Positions 1 through 11,925 of a stretch of 64,000 bases of DNA are shown here, in pieces. This DNA is from Candidatus Doudnabacteria bacterium (lineage in GTDB: Bacteria > Patescibacteriota > Doudnabacteria > UBA920 > VMFF01), in the NCBI GenBank assembly GCA_963840645.1, contig CAWIZL010000002.1, positions 209,663 through 273,662 on the forward strand, given 5' to 3'. Each line of letters starts with the position of its first letter. Position 1 is the first letter of the stretch. The position numbers were made by a program, and so were the translations under genes. Below the pieces are notes generated by a model. It searched no databases, was not told where the DNA came from, and saw only the letters and a list, made by a program, of their open reading frames with translations.

Positions 1-130
1 CAACCCCGACACCGACACCTACGCCAACTCCGACACCAACGCCGACACCTACGCCAACTCCGACGCCAACTCCGACGCCAACGCCAACGCCGACGCCAAC
101 GCCGACGCCAACTCCGACGCCAACGCCCGG
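1..130 (+). repeat. Imperfect ACN-CCN tandem repeat encoding a (Thr-Pro)n linker; a coding low-complexity repeat
   Basis: CCGACACCTACGCCAACTCCGACACCAACG... iterates for about 130 nt and is in frame with the downstream ORF. Confidence 0.85.
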
Positions 131-1190
131 GTCGCCGTGCACCATCACCAGTTTCTCGGCAAGCCCAACTGTTATATCGAACGGTAGCTCATCAACCCTC
201 TCGTGGTCATCAACAAACTGCACATCTGCAGTTATCAGTCCTGGTATTGGTTTTACGTGGCCGAACGGTAGTGCCCCAGTTTGGCCAGGCACCACCACCA
301 CGTACACGCTGACTGCGACTGATGGCACTAACTTTCCAACTGCCAACACAACTGTGACCGTGACGTTGGCACCATCTGTCCCATCAGCCCCATCTCCTCC
401 TGTTGTTGATCAAAACTACCAAACTTCTAGTGGCGCTGTTTCCTGCAACTCCATCCAAATTTCTTGGAGCGGCGTTGGTGGTGCTGATTCGTACGGAATC
501 TACCGCAGCACCACAAACTCTATTCCTGGTTTGCCGTGGCAGTCTGGCATTGTGCCAACGTCGTACACCTACTCAGATCCAACCAACACGGCCTACTACT
601 ACTGGGTCGCAGCGCACAATTCATTTGGCTACTCTTCAGGGACGCAGGCAGCACCAGCTCCGATTTCATCTACACCGTGCGAGGTGAACCTCAGCTCTTC
701 GGCCAAGACATTCACAGAGGTGCAGCCTGGCGGGTCTGGTTCGTTCGAGCCAATAGCATCTGCACCTTCCATAAACGCCGGGGATGTTGTGCAGGTTCAG
801 GTTCAGCTCATCAACTCAGGTACCCTTGATGCGACCAACGTGGTGCTCACAGACACCCCGACGAACTTGATAAACCCAAGAGGCTTTCAGCTGAACGGCT
901 CGCCTTGGGCAGTTGGATCTCTGCCATCAACAGGCGCGTTTGTCCTGCCATCCATTGCAAGAATTTCTGCAAGCACCACCACAACTGTAACGTTTGACGA
1001 GACAGTGACCGCACCGTCTGGAAGCCAGGTTGGCCTCTACAGATTTTCAAACATTTTGGGGATCTCGGCATCGCCACAGGTCGGCAGCAACTGTACCTCA
1101 CTATCTGCAGGTTCGTGCAGCATTGCCAGCGGCAGCGTGCCGTTCCACTACGGGTCAGGTGGCACATCAATCCACGAGGTCGCACCATGA
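1..1190 (+). CDS. Secreted/cell-surface protein, C-terminal part (5' end lies outside the window): (Thr-Pro)n linker, Ig-like and FN3-like modules, DUF11/CARDB-like segment
   Basis: Frame 3 is open from nt 3 to the TGA at 1188-1190, so the ORF-track start at 354 is only an internal start codon. Translation gives TPTPTP..., then SFSASPTVISNGSSSTLSWSS...TYTLTATDG, ISWSGVGGADSYGIYRS...YYYWVAAHNSFGYSS, and LINSGTLDATNVVLTDT. Confidence 0.7.
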   Translation, partial: TPTPTPTPTPTPTPTPTPTPTPTPTPTPTPTPTPTPTPTPTPGSPCTITSFSASPTVISNGSSSTLSWSSTNCTSAVISPGIGFTWPNGSAPVWPGTTTTYTLTATDGTNFPTANTTVTVTLAPSVPSAPSPPVVDQNYQTSSGAVSCNSIQISWSGVGGADSYGIYRSTTNSIPGLPWQSGIVPTSYTYSDPTNTAYYYWVAAHNSFGYSSGTQAAPAPISSTPCEVNLSSSAKTFTEVQPGGSGSFEPIASAPSINAGDVVQVQVQLINSGTLDATNVVLTDTPTNLINPRGFQLNGSPWAVGSLPSTGAFVLPSIARISASTTTTVTFDETVTAPSGSQVGLYRFSNILGISASPQVGSNCTSLSAGSCSIASGSVPFHYGSGGTSIHEVAP

Positions 1191-1714
1191 GTAACATCAA
1201 ACGTATGAAAACAGACACAATTTTTGCGTGGGTTCTCGGCATTGTTCTGGTTGCAGTGTTCATTGTGCTCGCCGTTGCGCTGCACCAGCACGGTTCTAGC
1301 AGTGCTCAGCCTGCCAACGCAGGGCAAACAGGTGGAACTGCGCAACAGTCACCAACGAGCCAGCCAATTTCTTCGTTGTCAGACCCAAAGTTCCAGAGCG
1401 TCCTCACAGGAGTGCCAGGCACGTCGAGCTACGCAGCAATAGTGGCAGCACAGGGAGTGGCAACACCTGCCATTCACATCACGGACTGCAAACCGTACCC
1501 ACAGGTCTCTGCTGTGACGATTGGCCAGCCAGTGGAAATTTACAACACTGACAGCGTTGCCAGAACCCTGAAAGGGTCTACTGGCAGCAGCTTCAGCGTT
1601 ACCGTTCCGGCAAAGGGCAGCACGTCCTTCACGTTCCACGCTGCCAGCCAGCCAACTGCATTCAACTACACGTGCAACGGCACAGTAGCTGGCGCAATTG
1701 TAACCTCAAACTAG
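1187..1714 (+). CDS. Membrane-anchored hypothetical protein with a C-terminal two-cysteine beta-sandwich (cupredoxin-like) domain
   Basis: The ATG at 1187 overlaps the upstream stop (ATGA). MSNIKRMKTDTIFAWVLGIVLVAVFIVLAVAL is a signal-anchor TM. The C-terminus reads HITDCKPYPQVSAVTIGQPVEIYNTD...FNYTCNG. It is a paralogue of 33008..33481. Confidence 0.6.
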   Translation: MSNIKRMKTDTIFAWVLGIVLVAVFIVLAVALHQHGSSSAQPANAGQTGGTAQQSPTSQPISSLSDPKFQSVLTGVPGTSSYAAIVAAQGVATPAIHITDCKPYPQVSAVTIGQPVEIYNTDSVARTLKGSTGSSFSVTVPAKGSTSFTFHAASQPTAFNYTCNGTVAGAIVTSN

Positions 1715-2403
1715 TGTTGCCAGTCCGGGGCAGGTGCGAGGCTGGGCAGACGCTCATTGAGACAGTCGTTGCCATTGCCATGCTGACAACTGGGGTGATT
1801 GTTGCCATGAGCCTGGCAGTGTACTCGTCTAGCTCAGCTGGTGATTCAACCAACCAAATTGTTGGCACTGAGCTGGCTAGGCAGGGCCCGAGGGAGTGAG
1901 AAACATGCGTGATTCAAACTGGCTGAATGCCACCAACGATCCTCTCTCCACCTGCGCAGAGTACGGGTCAGGCCAGTGCTACCCAAACTGGCTCGGGTGG
2001 CTCGGTGACCCAAACAGCATCAGCGTTGGCAACTACGCAATGGACATGTTAACCTACGGCGCAAGCCCAACCTACAGCGCAGAGCTCGTGAACCCTGGCA
2101 CCCTGCTAAACGGCAACGGCTACCAGCTCTACTACAATGCTCCATCAGGCCAGTTCTCGGTGAACCAAATTTCACCTGGGGATACGCTGTCGGTTTACAG
2201 CCGTGAGGTTGGTGTTACAGAGCAAACAGGCTTTGTGCCAAGTCTCAACGCAACGTACTCTCCTGCAAACCCACTGGTCACCGTGACCTCAACAGTGTGG
2301 TGGTCAAACAGGCACTGCCCGGCAACGGCAAGCCCTGCTACGCTACCGGCAAGTTGCCAGGTTGCAGTTGAGCACGTACCTCACGAACTGGAGGAACTTT
2401 TAA
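1714..2403 (+). CDS. Type IV pilin-like (pseudopilin) protein, interrupted by two compensating frameshifts (ORF pieces 1672..1899 and 1896..2531)
   Basis: A GTG/TTG start at 1714/1717 gives MLPVRGRCEAG|QTLIETVVAIAMLTTGVIVAM, a prepilin-type N-terminal motif. The frame changes at about 1885-1897 (..ELARQG / PEGVRNMRDSNWL). It returns to the first frame at about 2370 and ends ..TYLTNWRNF-TAA at 2401-2403, directly abutting the next ATG. Confidence 0.6.
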
Positions 2404-3054
2404 ATGGAGAGCAAAAACAACTCAACCCGTGCGGCCAACAGCGGATTTACGCTCATCGAGATCATCGTGTCTACCGCGCTCTTCGTGGTTATCGTGAGTG
2501 CACTCGTGGGGCTGTACCTGCAGGCAATTGACCTCAGCAACAGGGCTGACACCACCCGCACCGCAGCGCAGAACGCACGCGATCTGAGCGAGTCTCTGGC
2601 AAAAGATGTTAGGAATGGAACCATTGACTTTGGGGACGAGGGTGCCGTGGAATCGCCGTGCAATGGTAGCCCATCGAGCCCAACGCCACAGGGTGAGGCG
2701 AGCCTCGGGGTGTTGACCGTTGACGGCGCCCACAACTGCCTCTACCTTGGCGATGCGGCCAGCGGGGGAGGCAACCCACCGTACGATCCGAACGGCAAGT
2801 ACCTGTACCTCATAAGAAATACAGAGCCAGCACAGCTCTTGAACTCACCGAATTTATCTATCAACAGCTTCAAGGTGTACATCTTGCCAACATCCGATCC
2901 AGCCAGTGGCAGCAACCAAGAAGAGCTGGTCTCAATCGTCGGCAGTGTCAGTGCAGTATCAGGATCTGCGAACAACACAGTGCCACAGGACACCGCCGTG
3001 ATTCCTCTCGATGTAACCATTTCAATACCAGACTATGGATACTCACCGCACTAG
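2404..3054 (+). CDS. Prepilin-type N-terminal cleavage/methylation domain protein (minor pilin, PilW/GspJ-like)
   Basis: MESKNNSTRAANSG|FTLIEIIVSTALFVVIVSALVGLYL is the canonical G|FTLIE class III signal. Confidence 0.8.
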   Translation: MESKNNSTRAANSGFTLIEIIVSTALFVVIVSALVGLYLQAIDLSNRADTTRTAAQNARDLSESLAKDVRNGTIDFGDEGAVESPCNGSPSSPTPQGEASLGVLTVDGAHNCLYLGDAASGGGNPPYDPNGKYLYLIRNTEPAQLLNSPNLSINSFKVYILPTSDPASGSNQEELVSIVGSVSAVSGSANNTVPQDTAVIPLDVTISIPDYGYSPH

Positions 3055-3774
3055 GCAGGAAGGCATAACCCTCTTGCTCACCATCCTGATCCTCGCTGCC
3101 CTGTCAACGATTATTTTTGGATTGGCTGCTGTCACGCTCCAAGAGGTTCGCACGTCCAGCGACACCACCATATCAGAGCGAGTTATTTCGTCGGATGAGG
3201 CAATGAACGAGTACTCAATGTACGCGCTCACCAGGGGCAGTGCGTACGGAAGCATTTCCAGCAACTGCGGGACGCCGACTGCCTTGACCCTAAACAGCGT
3301 GCAGGTGAGTGCGTGCGCAGCTGAGTACGACCCAAGCCCTTACTCGTTCACGGTTCCTGCGGCTGCAACCCAGCCATTTCTCCTCTTTAACCCGTCAGAT
3401 TGGTACGGCACGAGCTGCAGCATGAGCGGGACAAACTGTCCTGGGTACACCTCCGTCACCATTACCCAGAACAGTGGAAGCCCCACTGGCGTGTACCTTT
3501 GTAACTGGTCAACGACTGGTTGCGATCCAGCTACTGACTACGGCAGTACAACAGTGGCACCTGGAAGTCCGTGGATGAGCCGGCCCTGAGCGCAACGAGC
3601 CAGTACCAGCTTGTGGTCGACAACCCTACAGGTGCCGGGGTAAACTACGTAATGGCCACGACCACGTCCTCTTCGCCTGCTTACGGGTCACCATCTGATA
3701 CAACAGAGCTCACCGTGAGCGGTACGCTAGAGGGGATAACTAGAAAACTGCAGGGTACTGTTGGGCAGCCGTAG
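3035..3774 (+). CDS. PilX-like minor pilin, interrupted by one frameshift (ORF pieces 3035..3589 and 3571..3774)
   Basis: The N-terminus RTRQEGITLLLTILILAALSTIIFGLA is PilX_N-like. The reading continues in frame 1 from about 3570 (..APGS / VDEPALSATSQYQLVV...TLEGITRKLQGTV). Confidence 0.55.
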
Positions 3775-3785
3775 CCTTCGGGTAC

Positions 3786-3827
3786 AAAAAAGAAGTTTTT
3801 GCTCCGGATAGTTTTAACTTCTTTTTT
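3786..3827. terminator. Bidirectional intrinsic terminator between convergent genes
   Basis: AAAAAAGAAGTT...AACTTCTTTTTT: an A-tract, hairpin and T-tract lie between the stop at 3774 (+) and the stop at 3842 (-). Confidence 0.6.
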
Positions 3828-3841
3828 GTGCCGAGTACCTA

Positions 3842-4228
3842 CTATTGCACTGGGACTTTGAGGGTTGAACCAAGTTTTAAGGTGTACGGGGCTTTCAGGT
3901 TATTCAGCTCAGCAAGGATTTCCCAGCTCGTGTTGTTCGCCTGTGCAACGCTGAAGAGCGTGTCACCCGACTGCACCGTGTAGGTGCTGTACGTTGTCTT
4001 GCTGTACGCCCCGAGCACTGCTGGCTGTACGTTCTGCGATGTTGCAAGTGTTTGGGAGTTTGCCGTGTGGCTGGCAGCTACGTTTTTGACAATGTTCACC
4101 GCGAGCAGGACAGAAAAAATTGTGAGGACAATGCCGCCTGTCTTATAGAGCGTTGACTGCGAAGATGGGTCAGACACGCCGAGCTTGAGTGATTCAGAGA
4201 GCTGTATCTTTTGTTTGTTTTTCGGCAT
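3842..4228 (-). CDS. LysM domain protein with N-terminal membrane anchor
   Basis: The start MPKNKQK (ATG at 4228) is chosen because the longer ORF-track version overlaps ligA. TM segment GGIVLTIFSVLLAVNIV. C-terminal LysM motif YTVQSGDTLFSVAQANNTSWEILAELNNL...LKLGSTLKVP. Confidence 0.8.
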   Translation of the reverse strand: MPKNKQKIQLSESLKLGVSDPSSQSTLYKTGGIVLTIFSVLLAVNIVKNVAASHTANSQTLATSQNVQPAVLGAYSKTTYSTYTVQSGDTLFSVAQANNTSWEILAELNNLKAPYTLKLGSTLKVPVQ

Positions 4229-4318
4229 TGATTTTGTTAATCTAAATTTAATTATAGGAGTTAATGTACCTGTTGTAAAGCTGTGGAAAAGTAGGGGATA
4301 TGGTGTTAAGATAAATGT

Positions 4319-6336
<2,018 letters not shown>

Positions 6337-6403
6337 CCCGTCTGATTTGACGTTGTGCGCGCGGCGGCATTCCCGCGCCGTGCACCCCTATTTTTTAAGG
6401 CTC

Positions 6404-6432
6404 TTGACAAACATTTCAGCCTCGAATATACT
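6404..6432 (+). promoter_or_regulatory. Sigma70-type promoter upstream of the 23S-5S rRNA locus
   Basis: TTGACA (6404-6409), a 17-nt spacer, TATACT (6427-6432), preceded by an A/T-rich tract. Confidence 0.6.
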
Positions 6433-7541
6433 CTCAACAGACTTGAATTTGAACGAGAAAAGCGTAGGTCAAAAGGTTAGCAAAAACCGTAAGATTCCCT
6501 AAAGATTCTTAGCAAAACGCACATGTTTACTTCCACATTAACACCAGAAAAGAGCGGCAGCTTCTAGCCACACATTTTACTGTGTACCTAGCAGCCGCTA
6601 CTGAGCGGTTTTTTGTTGGTTCAGGAACCTTTCAAAATTGTTGTCACATACTTACTGCCCAGGCCAGTATTTACTCGGGTCGAATTAGGGCAGTAGCTAC
6701 GTGATCGCAATACAGCACGACAATAGGCAGTCAACCAGGCGAGCGACACACTGCACATTAACAATTCAATAGTGGCAATCTAGCAGTTGAACGATCAACC
6801 CAACTGTATAGATATGTAAATTCATTGTTAGTGAACAAAGTCCAAATCACCATAAGATTCTAGTGTACAGAAAGCATTCGTCTAACGAGATTGCAGTTGT
6901 AAATTGCTAGTCAAGTTAAGAAGAATTAAAACAGAGAAGGGTATGCGGTGGATGCCTTGGCAATGTCAGCCGATGAAAGACGTGACAGCCTGCGATAAGC
7001 TCCGGGGAGGTGGCAGTAACCTATGATCCGAAGATTTCTGAATGGGGAAACCCACGCACGTGAAGCGTGCGTGCCAATGCACAGAGGTGTGCGTTGTGCG
7101 GGAACCGTGTGAAGTGAAACATCTCAGTAACACCAGGAAAATAAATCAATCTGTCGCAAGACAGGCGAGATTCCCTAAGTAGTGGCGAGCGAACGGGGAA
7201 AAGTAAAGTTATTTATATGATTGGATCCTATAGTTGGGTTCAGTCGATATAGGTAATCTTTCAGCCTAAACTATCCATGTGTTTGTTGTACGCAATACAA
7301 TTATTAAAGCTTACAGGCGTTGCATGGGTAGTGTAACAAGAGGGGTTGTGCGCTGCTGTAGAAGCGCGGAGGTACATTCAAGTGTTTAGCAGAACACGCC
7401 TGGAAAGGCGGACCAAAGAGGGTGATAGTCCCGTATCGCGAAAAACCATGCAATATTCCTAACTTTTTCTTAAGTACAACCAGACACGAGAAATCTGGTT
7501 GGAAATCGGGTCGACTAAGATCCAAGGCTAAATACTCATAT

Positions 7542-7582
<41 letters not shown>

Positions 7583-8264
7583 CACCCCGGAAGGGGAATG
7601 AAATAGTATCTGAAACCGTATACTTACAAGGAGTGGAAGCCCGTAGCAGTGTTTACACTGCTGGGTAACCGCGTGCCTATTGAAGAATGATCCAACGAGT
7701 TAATCTTATACGTGCTTATTAAGCCTTATCAAAGGCGAAATCGTAGTGAAAGCGAGGATGAATAGTCCGCATTAAGAGAATAGTTGATAGTTAGTAGTTA
7801 ATAGCTGGGGATTGTGCGCAGCAGACCGTTGCAATGCCGTCTATTAACTACTAACTATTAGCTATTACTCTTAAATGTCGCATGAGTTAGACCCGAAACC
7901 CAGTGAGCTACTCATGGCCAGGATGAACGTTATGTAAAAGTAACGGGAGGTCCGAACCCACTATTGCTCGCAAAAATAGGGGATGAACTGTGAGTAGGGG
8001 AGAAATTCCAATCGAACTGGGTGATAGCTGGTTCTCCTCGAAATAGCTTTAGGGCTAGCGTCAGATGTTCCCTTGAGAGGTAGAGCACTGAATGGAAACC
8101 TGCTGCGCAAGCGGTAGTCTCCAACCAAACTCCGAATTCTAAAGGTCAAGAGTCTGGCAGTCAGTCCGTGAGGTCTAAGCTTCACGCGACAAATGGAGAA
8201 GAATCCACACCATCGTCTAAGGCCCCCAAATCCTAGCTATAGTGCAAAGGATGTGGGATTGCCC

Positions 8265-8301
<37 letters not shown>

Positions 8302-8997
8302 TAAAGAAAGCGTAACAGCTCACTGGTCAAGCGATCCTGCGCCGACAATATATAGGGGCTAAGCTAGGTGCCGAAGACATGGATTGGCTCGACTTCATTG
8401 CGAGTCAGTGGTAGAGGAGTGTTCTGTACAGCGCTGAAGCGGTATGCGTAAGCGGCCGTGGACGTGCACAAGCAAGAATGTTGGAATAAGTAATATATAT
8501 AGAGGTGAGAATCCTCTTCGCCGAATATCCAAGGTTTCCAGGGCAACGATCGTCGTCCCTGGGTTAGTCGATCCTAAGAGTGGGCCCCAAGGGGTCCACC
8601 CGATGGAAAATACGGTTGATATTCCATAACCACTTTACAATTATCTAAGGCGGAACGCATCATGATAGCGCTGGCGTCATCTGACTATTGGCGTTGTTGT
8701 CTTGTAGGATGAGTTCCAGGCAAATCCGGAGCTCCTATGTTTTGTATATCTACCTCGCAAGAGATGAGATGCAAAACTGTAAATCTCGAAGAGTGCGAAG
8801 AAATCCTGGCAACGGGGATTGGCGTGAATCAAGGTGTCAAGAAAAACGTCGTAGTCACGTTATATGGTGACCGTACCGTAAACCGACACAGGTGGATGGG
8901 GAGAGAATCCCAAGGCGTCCGGATCAATGTTCGTTAAGGAACTCGGCAAAATAAGCGGTCGTACCTTCGGTATATGCCTGACCTTTCATATGCTGGG

Positions 8998-9365
8998 TTG
9001 TGGGTTAAATTAAATGTGAGTGTGCGACTTCATAGCTACAACGGTGGAGGTTCCTCCACTGGGTAAAATCAGGAGGTCGTAGGTTCGATCCCTACTAGTC
9101 GCGCCAAATTGAAGTTGGAAGAATTCACAAGTCTGTACGTTCTCTGTCAATCCTCCGCGGCGGATGAGCGAAAGATTTCGGATTCTGGGAAACGTTGTGT
9201 CGATGCACCCGTCGTTCACTTGCAACAAGACTGAACAGAGATGCTGTCATGCACTGCTTCGTTTATCTACAGAGAGTGGTGTAGCCGCTCATAGCGGCAT
9301 ACCACTCTCAACCACTCGGTCGGACTGGCTGTGATTCTCCCGAGTATAGAACCATCCATCCACTA
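8998..9365 (+). other. About 370-nt expansion segment or intervening sequence inserted at the tip of 23S helix 63
   Basis: It is closed by CATATGCTGGG (8987-8997) pairing with CCCAGCATAT (9366-9375). It lies between the conserved GGAACTCGGCAAA and CGACTGTTTACC blocks. It contains GNRA-capped hairpins and a tRNA-like module. Confidence 0.6.
9024..9106 (+). other. tRNA-like module (acceptor stem, degenerate D-arm, canonical T-arm, encoded CCA) embedded in the 23S expansion; not a canonical tRNA
   Basis: GCGACTT (9024-9030) pairs 6/7 with TAGTCGC (9096-9102), followed by G-CCA. The T-arm is GTAGG-TTCGATC-CCTAC (9079-9095). A D-arm remnant reads TAGCTACAACGGTGGAGG. There is no 5-bp/7-nt anticodon arm; instead there is a CCTCC/GGAGG stem with a 14-nt loop, or alternatively a GTGGAGG/CCTCCAC hairpin. 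Confidence 0.5.
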
Positions 9366-9540
9366 CCCAGCATATTAAAGGCCCGCAGCGAAAGATCTCT
9401 CCCGACTGTTTACCAAAAACTTAGGTCCGTGCTAAAGCGCAAGCTGATGTATACGGGCTGATGCCTGGCCAGTGTCAGAAGGTTAAACCGGTGTGGCGCA
9501 AGCCTCGGCTCAAGCCCTGATGAACGCCGGCAGTAACTAT

Positions 9541-10280
9541 GAACAATTGTAGTTATAAAATTTGGCTATTTGCGGGGATCTCTGTGCACACATGTTTCGT
9601 CATGAGGTGCTTAAAGCTGGTAGTACTCGTCTGAAATATGACAGTAAAAATCTATCAGATACAGACAATCCGCAGGGAAGATTCACTGAAAAGATCCATA
9701 CAAGGAGAATAATATATGGATCAAAGTTGGCTCAAAGAGATTCCGACAGAAAAAGGTTACTACTTTGCAGGTTTCGTAGATGGAGAAGGTAGCTTCAACG
9801 TTTCATTACGTAAGCGATCTGATCATGCAGTACACTGGCAAATAATTCTAACCTTCAATGTCTCCCAGCGCGATCTTGTCGTTTTGTCTCAAATGAAAAA
9901 ATATTTGGGATGCGGCAGGTTATTCGCTAGGAAAGATGGTGTGAACTGTTACATAGTTCAAAACCCATCTGCAATCCAGGAAAGGATTATTCCTTTCTTC
10001 AAGCGGTTTCCTTTTTTATCCGCTAATAAAAAAAAGAACTTCTCGATCTTTGTCCAAATTGCAGATTTGGTCAGCAGCAAGCAGCATCTTACAGAAGATG
10101 GCCTGCGAATCGTTCATTTAAGAGAAAAGCTAAATGAAGGTAAAGGTAGGAAGCGCAAGTACAACTTATCAGATTATTTAGGATCTGACAGCGAAAACCC
10201 TCAACGACTACACGCCGAACGCCAAGAAATTGGTGATGATATAGTCTGATCTGCACGGAGACGTGCAGCAAACACACATG
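9541..10280 (+). mobile_element. Group I intron in 23S rRNA at the E. coli-equivalent site 1917, carrying a LAGLIDADG homing-endonuclease ORF
   Basis: The 5' exon ends ..AACTAT (U at -1). The internal guide GTAGTT (9549-9554) pairs with AACTAT. Core elements are P ATTTGCGGGG (about 9568), Q AATCCGCAGG (about 9667), R TCAACGACTACACG (10201) and S GATATAGTC (about 10238). The intron ends ..CACATG (terminal G). Removing it restores GTAACTAT|AACTGTCC. Confidence 0.8.
9716..10249 (+). CDS. LAGLIDADG homing endonuclease (single-motif, I-CreI-like homodimer type), intron-encoded
   Basis: Contains KGYYFAGFVDGEGSFNVSL (LAGLIDADG motif) and ..IIPFFKRFPFLSANKKKNF. The C-terminal codons run into the intron R/S core. 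Confidence 0.9.
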   Translation: MDQSWLKEIPTEKGYYFAGFVDGEGSFNVSLRKRSDHAVHWQIILTFNVSQRDLVVLSQMKKYLGCGRLFARKDGVNCYIVQNPSAIQERIIPFFKRFPFLSANKKKNFSIFVQIADLVSSKQHLTEDGLRIVHLREKLNEGKGRKRKYNLSDYLGSDSENPQRLHAERQEIGDDIV

Positions 10281-10294
10281 AACTGTCCTATGGT

Positions 10295-10604
10295 GGAAGG
10301 AATTCCCTTTGCCCTCGCAAGAGAGGCAAAGGTTTAGCCGCCTTAGTAAAATTTGGCCATTTGCTGGAAACCCTGAGTATGTCATGGTACTCGTTGCTGT
10401 TGATTTAACAGCAACAGTGAAAATCCATGAACGCAGACAATCAGCAGGAAAGACTGGCTAAGAAATTAGCCAGAATCCTCAACGACTATACGCCAAACGC
10501 TAATAAATGATTAGTGATGATATAGTCTAAGCTGCATGGCGACATGCAGAGTACGACAGAAATGATCGTACCTTGACTTGACAAAAGTCATGTAATATGA
10601 CCTC
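10295..10604 (+). mobile_element. Second, ORF-less group I intron, homologous to the first, at the E. coli-equivalent site 1931; the 3' boundary is uncertain
   Basis: Core elements are P ATTTGCTGG (about 10359), Q AATCAGCAGG (about 10437), R TCAACGACTATACG (about 10479) and S GATATAGTC (about 10519). The internal guide GCCTTAG (10340-10346) is complementary to CTAAGGT (the exon reads CTATGGT). TTTAGC (10333-10338) pairs with the 3' exon GCGAAA. The nucleotide before the AGCGAAATTCC exon is C, not the canonical G. Confidence 0.65.
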
Positions 10605-11203
10605 AGCGAAATTCCTTGTCGCGTAAGTTGCGACCCGCACGAATGGCATAACGAGTAGAGGACTGTCTTGACGAACAACCCGATGAATTTACAGTGGCGG
10701 TAAAGATGCCGTCTGCCCGCAACAAGACGGAAAGACCCTATGAAGCTTTACTATAGCGTGTCATTGGAATAAGGTTTTGGCTGTTTAGAATAGGTGGGAG
10801 ACTTTGAAGTGCTGCTCTGGCAGTAACTGAGTCGCAAGGTGAAATACCACCCTGTCGAAATTTTGTTTCTAACCTTGGTTTAACCTGCCAGGGAACAGTG
10901 GCTCGTGGGTAGTTTAACTGGGGCGGTTGCCTCCTAAATGGTAACGGAGGCGTTTATTAAGGTAGGCTAAACGCGGATGGAAATCGCGTTGATAGTGCAA
11001 ACGCATAAGCCTGCTTGACTGCAAGGCCAGCGAGCCGCGCAGGTACGAAAGTAGAAGTTAGTGATCCGATGCGTTAGAGTGGAATACGCAAAGCCCAACG
11101 GATAAAAGTTACTCTAGGGATAACAGGCTGATCCGTCTCCAAGAGTCCACATCGACGACCGGGTTTGGCACCTCGATGTCGGCTCATCACGTCCTGGGGG
11201 TGA

Positions 11204-11240
<37 letters not shown>

Positions 11241-11802
11241 TGGTACGCGAGCTGGGTTCAAAACGTCGTGAGACAGTTTGGTCCTTATCTGTTGTGGGTG
11301 TACGAAACTTGAGTGGGCACATCTCTAGTACGAGAGGACCAGATGTATGGACCTCTGGTGTACCCGTTGTCCTGTCAAGGGCATAGCGGGGTAGCTAGGC
11401 TCAGTTCAGATAAACGCTGAAGGCATATAAGCGTGAAGCTGTCCACAAAACTAGGTTTCGTTGTGCAGCGATGCACGATAGATTCGCAGAAGACTACTGC
11501 GCACATAGGTTGCAGGTGTAAGCACAGCAATGTGTTCAGCCGAGCAATACTAATCAATCGAAAGTTTTAATTCTTTTTGACTAGCAATTTGCGCTTGTAA
11601 TACAGCGTGATTGTTGGCCGAAGAATTTCTGGGCATACTAGAATACGTCTTTGTTGCATAACAATTTACATTGTTTTCGCCGAAAGGTGAGAACATGCCA
11701 CTATGGTTTGATACAATTCGAAGGTGAATGCCTTCTGAACTTTCAGAGAAACCGCATCCAAAATCCGAATAATTTTGGCTAGCGCACGTTTCCCTGCAGG
11801 TT

Positions 11803-11917
11803 TAGGTGGCATTTACGGCGCGGTCCTGACCTGATCCCATCCCGAACTCAGTAGTCAAACGCGTTCGTGCCGATGATAGCTGGGCTTATGTCCATGCAAA
11901 AGTAGGTAGCCGCCTCT
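11803..11917 (+). rRNA. rrf: 5S rRNA
   Basis: TAGGTGGC...CCTGATCCCATCCCGAACTCAG...GTGCCGATGATAGCTGGG...AGTAGGTAGCCGCCT. The terminal helix pairs. The ends are accurate to a few nt. Confidence 0.85.
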
Positions 11918-11925
11918 ATCACTGA

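Follow-up and report, generated by a model that had tools for sequence, protein, structure and literature searches.

A 64,000-nt stretch of a Candidatus Doudnabacteria contig (hereafter the window, by which we mean the stretch at its full length) carries a 23S ribosomal RNA (rRNA) gene that is interrupted by two group I introns, inserted after positions 1917 and 1931 (Escherichia coli numbering, Ec) and separated by an exon of 14 nt. We consider it probable that these are two mobile introns of one superfamily occupying neighbouring homing sites, that they (intron 1 and intron 2) act independently of each other, and that the second, which ends in C, is probably slowed in its second splicing step but most likely productive. 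The terminal nucleotide is the sole aspect of the locus with a wider reach; non-G endings are not limited to decayed copies of such introns.

The host gene, the first intron and the micro-exon

The 23S gene occupies positions 6924-11574 of the (+) strand (4651 nt; Rfam large subunit (LSU) model RF02541, 2102 bits, model positions 1-2925). It is the single 23S rRNA gene seen in the window, and the host is a member of the Patescibacteria, or candidate phyla radiation (CPR), the nearest contigs being labelled Patescibacteria or Doudnabacteria. In a MAFFT alignment with the E. coli rrlH gene (67% identity over aligned columns), a 740-nt insertion follows U1917 (9541-10280) and a 310-nt insertion follows U1931 (10295-10604). 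The Rfam LSU model reads GUAACUAU, ACUGUC and AGCGAAAUUCC around the two insertions, the aligned row consisting of CGGCAGUAACUAU, 741 unaligned nt, ACUGUC, 315 unaligned nt and UCAGCGAAAUUCC. The 5′ exon ends in GGCAGTAACTAT (9529-9540), comprising the 5′ strand and loop of helix 69 (H69) with U1917 as its last base, according to both the LSU model and MAFFT. The micro-exon AACUGUCCUAUGGU (10281-10294, Ec1918-1931) is defined by the same two alignments and by related contigs, and the 3′ exon, read from the sequence, begins with AGCGAAAUUCCUU (10605-10617, Ec1932 onward). An original prediction, made from the DNA letters alone, had proposed insertions after 1917 and 1931 with a 14-nt spacing; this proved exact to the base, and every string it quoted is present where it had been placed.

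The first insertion is a complete intron and homing endonuclease unit with canonical splice signals. Its core elements P (ATTTGCGGGG, 9568-9577), Q (AATCCGCAGG, 9667-9676), R (TCAACGACTACACG, 10201-10214) and S (GATATAGTC, 10238-10246) are followed by a P9 hairpin (10251-10268), and its last base is G10280. P1 is formed by the exon bases AACUAU (9535-9540) and the internal guide GUAGUU (GTAGTT, 9549-9554); the U at the 5′ splice site makes a U-G wobble with the guide, as it does in both introns. A possible P10 can be read between bases 1-6 of the micro-exon (AACUGU) and ACAAUU (9543-9548), with 5 of 6 positions paired. The intron follows the rules as originally described, with U at -1, the GTAGTT/AACTAT guide pairing and the terminal G10280. 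The Rfam group I model RF00028 matched the 3′ half alone (10048-10268, 43.7 bits, E = 1.9e-9), because a 534-nt open reading frame (ORF) in the P6 loop splits the match. Introns 75-80% identical to intron 1 occupy the same site in three related contigs (L001, L003 and L007).

This ORF (9716-10249, + strand) encodes a 177-aa homing endonuclease of the single-motif LAGLIDADG_1 family (Pfam PF00961, E = 9.5e-20), and a Shine-Dalgarno sequence, AAGGAG (9702-9707), lies 8 nt upstream. From a start in the P6 loop, the reading frame extends across P7, P3′ and P8 to a stop just past S, and a database search returned 1515 homologues of the protein. The ratio of non-synonymous to synonymous substitutions (dN/dS) was 0.066 and 0.044, respectively, against the two nearest full-length relatives (L001 and L003); the gene is therefore maintained under purifying selection, in line with the intact LAGLIDADG ORF of the original prediction. 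Intron 1 shares its site, the single motif, the start in P6 and the overlap with the core with L1917 LAGLIDADG introns of the Synechococcus C9 and Thermotoga subterranea type.

The 14-nt exon AACTGTCCTATGGT that divides the two introns corresponds to the 3′ strand of H69 and the linker between H69 and helix 71 (H71). In three related contigs (L001, L002 and L003), intron 1 is followed by an uninterrupted AACTGTCCTATGGT joined to AGCGAAATTCC. The micro-exon is genuine rRNA, as had been proposed, because it is contiguous with the flanking exon in these relatives, and their exon sequence also identifies G1921U and A1928U as lineage traits rather than sequencing errors. The compensation of G1921U by C1909A in H69 (GGCAG/CTGTC), on which the proposal had leaned, is seen directly in the sequence. 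Correct annotation of the 14-nt segment as real rRNA matters for standard rRNA callers and for 23S-based phylogenies.

The arrangement is that of tandem group I introns flanking a micro-exon, as in Coxiella and phage Twort, here with an exon of 14 nt. The micro-exon is split without overlap, bases 1-6 belonging to P10 of intron 1 and bases 8-14 (CUAUGGU) forming the exon strand of P1 of intron 2. This partition suggests that the two ribozymes could fold and react independently and that either could go first. H69 would form once intron 1 is out, and not before.

The second intron and its family

Intron 2 belongs to the widespread L1931 family and has no ORF; its catalytic core is intact and its tail has the P9/P9.1/P9.2 organization of the family. 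To place it, metagenome contigs were scanned with the L1931 guide motif GCCTTAGNAAAATTTGG, which gave at least 120 stretches; 57 distinct L1931 introns with both exon borders present (232-780 nt) were obtained among the matches listed together with the window and contig L008, and all counts for the family given here rest on those matches. The group I core P3-P9 was found with its P (ATTTGCTGG, 10359-10367), Q (AATCAGCAGG, 10439-10448), R (TCAACGACTATACG, 10479-10492) and S (GATATAGTC, 10519-10527) elements, and RF00028 matched intron 2 end to end (10301-10549, 74.7 bits; gathering score 50), whereas the match to intron 1 is split by its ORF. A hairpin with a GCAA cap is inserted in the P1 loop (10305-10332), followed by the P10 strand (10331-10339) and the guide GCCUUAG (GCCTTAG, 10340-10346). 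The remaining helices are the P6 hairpin (10454-10473), P8 (10498-10516), P9 (10532-10549), which is identical to the family consensus CUGCAUGGCGACAUGCAG, P9.1 (10551-10571) and P9.2 (10574-10590), and the last 14 nt (10591-10604) are single-stranded. The insertion site (that of I-CpaI), the guide and the tail are those of the L1931 family, while P10 is degenerate. No ORF longer than 50 aa was found in intron 2, which does not encode the single-motif LAGLIDADG endonuclease of L1931 introns.

The two introns are homologous, as originally proposed: their cores align with 69-75% column identity, and the P4 change from GCGG:CCGC to GCUG:CAGC (the P/Q difference of the earlier reading, GCTG:CAGC in DNA) is compensatory. 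The fold of intron 2 has a z-score of -6.9. In the consensus fold derived from the L1931 family alignment, 24 of 64 pairs show compensatory changes, and the window's intron breaks just one of the pairs, a U-U in P1. The G-binding pair of P7, GACUA/UAGUC, is present in both introns; in the window lineage, P7 is closed below the bulge by A-U and the bulged base is C, as against G-C and a bulged A elsewhere.

The U-U mismatch lies inside the P1 helix formed by CUAUGGU and GCCUUAG, the guide being suited to the consensus exon CUAAGGU. Contig L008 has the same exon variant (CTATGGT) with a matching guide (GCCAUAG; GCCATAG), and the mismatch in the window is therefore an unadapted state. In P10, AGCGAAAUU faces GGUUUAGCC (10331-10339) with 7 of 9 positions paired and mismatches at 1 and 4, whereas the rest of the L1931 family has a clean P10, AGCGA/UCGCU, directly 5′ of the guide. 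In this register, P10 sets the 3′ splice site so that A1932 follows it directly in every L1931 member. The lack of an ORF, the GCAA-capped hairpin in the P1 loop and the single guide mismatch to CTATGGT had all been recognized in the original prediction.

The L1931 site is empty in L001, L002 and L003, and intron 2 is therefore exactly 10295-10604, with C as its last base. These borders cannot slide, since T differs from C at one side and G from A at the other. The Rfam LSU and Intron_gpI models agree with the introns as first proposed, and it is the empty site of the relatives that fixes the borders of the second. Other placements of the terminal G were considered and rejected. Ending the intron at G10599 would add ACCUC to the rRNA and conflicts with the empty site and the P10 register. 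Ending it at G10606 would replace A1932 and G1933 by the first two intron bases, yet these are not conserved in the family, and this register too conflicts with the relatives' empty site and with P10. A conserved G further upstream is no better candidate, as the position is A, G or U in the UAACA subfamily. The L007 contig (3569-3600; a Candidatus Doudnabacteria metagenome-assembled genome (MAG), CAWBGV010000031.1) also has an empty L1931 site, CCTATGGTAAGCGAAATTCC, with one extra A at the insertion point, which may be a long-read error or the footprint of imprecise intron loss.

The first bases of intron 2, GGAAGGAATTCC, had been taken as a near-copy of the downstream exon. They are better read as its complement: AAGGAATT (10297-10304; AAGGAAUU) pairs over 8 bp with AATTCCTT (10610-10617; AAUUCCUU), and this helix is present in the minimum-free-energy fold. 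It is the longest of its kind in the L1931 family, about 20 members of which begin with GGAAU, complementary to AUUCC. As a conserved feature of the family, pairing of the intron's 5′ end with the 3′ exon was nonetheless rejected, the family mean (4.70) being equal to that of shuffled sequences (4.69).

The tandem layout, presented at first as unusual and novel, recurs widely. In 33 of the 57 L1931 introns, the 14 nt upstream are not preceded by the 5′ strand of H69; in 32 of these 33, the micro-exon is preceded at a distance of 27-93 nt by a group I S element, and 11 have a whole L1917 intron (280-788 nt) on the contig. ORF-less variants are common, with 30 of the 57 introns no longer than 509 nt, and one contig (L094) reproduces the architecture of the window, with an L1917 intron of 780 nt, a 14-nt exon and an L1931 intron of 274 nt that lacks an ORF and ends in C. 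The rRNA flanking the sampled L1931 introns is about 71% identical to that of the window, the GC content of the contigs ranges from 0.38 to 0.64, and an Rfam scan of one of them (L031) revealed an ordinary bacterial LSU and a 5S rRNA; the tandem layout is therefore not peculiar to CPR bacteria. The L1917/L1931 pair with its 14-nt exon is a common state that is already documented, having been published twice (PMC1995217, PMC11019260) and being implicit in a third study (PMC11270868).

An even denser arrangement was seen in contig L121 (1-1156; Ga0116228_10286781), whose LSU gene contains group I introns at 1917, 1923 and 1931, none of them with an ORF. The first exon ends in GTAACTAT (position 114) and is followed by an intron (115-473), the 6-nt exon AACGGT (Ec1918-1923), a second intron (480-742, guide GCCGTT), the 8-nt exon CCTAAGGT (Ec1924-1931), a third intron (751-1033) and AGCGAAATTCC. 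The 8-nt exon would be needed both for P10 of the middle intron and for P1 of the last, and the order of splicing may therefore be forced. With exons as short as 6 and 8 nt, such arrangements give a lower bound for the exon needed between two ribozymes.

The terminal nucleotide and the activity of intron 2

Intron 1 has a terminal omega G (G10280) and intron 2 does not (C10604). The base preceding AGCG in the 57 L1931 introns is G in 33 cases, A in 14, C in 10 and U in none, non-G endings thus making up about 40% of the sample (24/57). Three contigs (L051, L115 and L119) end in TTAACAGACCTC and a fourth (L094) in TTAACAGATCTC; in the tail alignment, ...GUAAUAUGACCUC of the window stands beside ...GUUAACAGACCUC (L051, L115 and L119) and ...GAUCUC (L094), other ends being of the type ...GAACUG (L056, G) and ...AGUCUA (L058, A). 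Compensatory changes in P9.1 and P9.2 distinguish the C-ending members from each other, with the terminal motif kept; some copies have an ORF (L115) and others do not (L119). Reading frames of 178-252 aa are intact in C-ending (L051, L072, L085, L095 and L115) and in A-ending introns (L031, L046, L060, L074 and L104), and the G-binding pair of P7 is the same in every terminal-base class. An A ending was also seen in L1917 introns of the sample (L026, L031, L102, L111, L085 and L063), for example ...ACGACCTA before AACGG, an exception of the type reported for Coxiella. The idea that non-G endings go with the tandem state was rejected, since they occur in both settings (15 of 33 tandem and 9 of 24 single introns). 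As judged from sequence, the terminal C is real and has persisted, and it is not tied to the tandem arrangement.

The original prediction had called the second intron aberrant. The missing terminal G bears this out, but its long tail is typical, the 77 nt from S to the 3′ end falling well within the range of the family (59-148 nt). Nor is the loss of the terminal G itself a novelty, given its recurrence in the family and the precedent announced in the title of a study on Coxiella (see below).

It is very improbable that an error of sequencing or assembly in a MAG contig produced the terminal C and that the true ending is G. There is one assembly of this genome, the identical protein P0001 lying on a single 407,690-bp contig, and a one-base error is likely at this junction in the related MAG L007, both of which would be compatible with an error here. 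However, GACCTC precedes AGCG in three independent contigs (L051, L115 and L119) and GATCTC does so in L094, 24 members of the family end in A or C, and the change would be a substitution, not a homopolymer indel. With the GAYCTC ending present in four contigs, the terminal C is not an assembly error, and the assembly indel initially suspected is unlikely.

A second alternative is that the two introns form a cooperative unit, intron 2 depending on intron 1 or both being removed jointly with skipping of the exon. Their cores are homologous, and exon skipping across short exons is known in Coxiella and phage Twort (PMC10136302). Here, however, skipping would delete the essential 3′ strand of H69. 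The guides of the two introns differ and the micro-exon is partitioned between them without overlap; C-ending L1931 introns occur without an L1917 neighbour (L076 and L096), and the closest relatives found have intron 1 alone. The dependence on intron 1 that had been considered is thus not indicated, and we regard a cooperative unit as highly unlikely.

A more serious contender, although we still think it doubtful, is that intron 2 is a decaying, ligation-defective element. The terminal C, the U-U mismatch in P1, the weak P10 and the absence of an ORF would all fit, and the last 6-9 nt are hypervariable across the L1931 family, even among close relatives, as expected if the constraint on the 3′ splice site were relaxed. 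In addition, the L1931 intron of Simkania is unspliced according to the title of Everett et al. 1999 (cited in PMC11270868 and PMC1995217). Against decay, the catalytic core and all helices of intron 2 are intact, with an RF00028 score above the gathering threshold, and non-G introns retain intact endonuclease genes. The P10 pairing AGCGA/UCGCU is kept family-wide, including in members ending in A or C, and would be needless if ligation were irrelevant. Lastly, the insertion point is at the subunit interface, between H69 and H71.

We therefore return to the reading of two independent mobile introns of which the second is slow but productive. The first, guanosine-dependent step of intron 2 should be normal, because the G-binding pair of P7 is intact. 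Its second step would have to cope with the omega C, the U-U mismatch in P1 and the weakened P10, and would probably be slower. The intron is most likely productive nonetheless, because diverged relatives with intact endonuclease genes have kept this terminal motif.

Several points weigh against this reading. We infer the splicing of either intron from its features. Intron 2 combines three weakening features, namely the terminal C, the P1 U-U mismatch and the P10 mismatches at positions 1 and 4; it is also set apart by its P1-loop hairpin, which 19 other ORF-less relatives all lack. In a small independent sample picked by endonuclease similarity (homologues of 162 aa), a terminal G was found in all of the four further distinct L1931 introns, and non-G endings are therefore confined to certain clades. 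A terminal G is considered indispensable to the second step, and C cannot be bound by the G-binding site in the known manner. Persistent non-G endings might just as well reflect tolerance of failed ligation at the L1931 site, as the Simkania title implies.

On a broader scale, we raise tentatively, and as an unlikely reading, that the terminal G is dispensable in a sizeable L1931 clade and in some L1917 introns, either because ligation proceeds without docking of the G or because ribosomes routinely tolerate an unligated or intron-retaining H69-H71 junction. Intron 2 of the window, with its terminal C, would be an instance from the CPR. In the former case, the 3′ splice site might be positioned by P10 and P9.0 alone, or with the help of a host factor. 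If the non-G introns splice, the requirement for a terminal G in the second step would be softer in nature than model ribozymes suggest; if they do not, the H69-H71 junction would tolerate breaks or insertions in many bacteria.

Origin of intron 2 and comparison with known systems

Intron 2 is absent from the closest relatives found (L001, L002, L003 and L007). In L001 and L002, the endonuclease is 83% identical to that of the window and the 3′ exon 94% identical; L003 is a MAG labelled Patescibacteria. We read its absence there, and a guide suited to the consensus exon instead of the host's, as a fairly recent gain of intron 2, probably from a related CPR donor, because the P7 variant of the lineage is common to it and intron 1. 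Intron 2 is also a mosaic: L1931-family states are found in its 5′ half (9 of 9 diagnostic columns), in P9 and in the tail, while only the flanks of P7 are lineage-like (4 of 6). Such a pattern suggests a donor from within the clade or gene conversion between introns residing in the same gene. An origin as a local duplicate of intron 1 was rejected in view of the L1931 states in the 5′ half, P9 and tail, and BLAST revealed no special closeness between the two.

The P7 variant, TCAACGACTA...GATGATATAGTC-T (A-U closing pair and bulged C), was seen in introns at three 23S sites and in the window lineage only, that is at 10201-10246 and 10479-10528 of the window, at 895 and 1821 of L001, and in L002, L003 and L007; the 98 other cores of the loci compared have TCAGAGACTA...GAAGATATAGTC-C. 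A tandem of L1917 and L1931 introns, the latter ending in G, was also noted in the CPR-like contig L008 (717-991; CAZMID010000048.1). This contig is binned as Planctomycetia but is close to a Peregrinibacteria contig (L009), and the bin label looks wrong.

The 23S gene is expanded (4651 nt vs. 2925 model positions) by the two introns and by several expansion segments. Relative to E. coli, there are about 135 extra nt after Ec284 (7245-7379), about 100 around Ec638-653 (7757-7874) and about 350 in three blocks at Ec1731-1770 (9017-9402), the last of which is not kept in L007; no Rfam match and no credible ORF were found in these three intervals. A 5S gene (11802-11918, Rfam) lies downstream, and Rfam revealed no 16S gene in the 6.9 kb upstream of the 23S gene (window 1-6923), so that the 16S appears to be unlinked from the 23S-5S pair.

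Among known systems, Coxiella offers a parallel for both the short exon and the unusual ending. According to the title of Raghavan 2007 (cited in PMC11270868), two introns flank a 34-bp exon of its 23S gene and one of them lacks the canonical terminal G; as in the window, a very short H69-H71 exon is bracketed by two introns, one with a non-G end, and both of those in Coxiella are reported to be self-splicing. The Coxiella introns belong to different subgroups, IB2 and IA3 (PMC10136302), whereas the window pair is homologous. Inclusion of an exon as well as its skipping has been described with short exons (PMC10136302). The second site also differs (L1951 in Coxiella vs. L1931 here), as does the length of the exon (34 vs. 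14 nt). The odd terminal base of Coxiella is reportedly an A and resides in the L1917 intron, whereas the window has a C in its L1931 intron.

The L1931 group I intron of Simkania negevensis (654 nt, with a 143-aa endonuclease ORF; PMC1995217) shares its 23S site with intron 2 and, going by the Everett et al. title already mentioned, is a precedent for a site that may tolerate a retained intron. It differs from intron 2 in having an endonuclease ORF and in standing alone. The L1931 intron of Thermotoga is said to have been characterized experimentally and to splice.

The catalogue of rRNA insertions in CPR bacteria (Tsurumaki et al. 2024, PMC11270868) lists 1917 (23IS6) and 1931 (23IS7) as frequent LAGLIDADG_1 sites. 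It resembles the window in phylum, sites and endonuclease family, and it likewise has versions with and without an ORF at one site and many genes with multiple insertions; the portions of its main text that were searched do not discuss the micro-exon or the 3′ terminal nucleotide. The plastid rrl gene of Navicula vanseea has IB4 introns at L1917 and L1931 (PMC11019260), that is, at the same two sites in one gene, but in an organelle and with ORFs in both introns.

In Synechococcus sp. C9, the gene for LSU rRNA contains group I introns at L1917, L1931 and L2593 (Haugen et al. 2007, PMC1995217). Like that of the window, this is a bacterial 23S gene combining L1917 and L1931 introns, so that the same 14-nt micro-exon is implied, and it has single-motif LAGLIDADG genes. 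Its host is a cyanobacterium and both introns carry endonuclease genes, whereas the L1931 intron of the window is ORF-less and its host belongs to the CPR. The L1917 ORF of Synechococcus C9 takes the same path as that of intron 1, starting in P6 and running through P7, P3 and P8 (PMC1995217).

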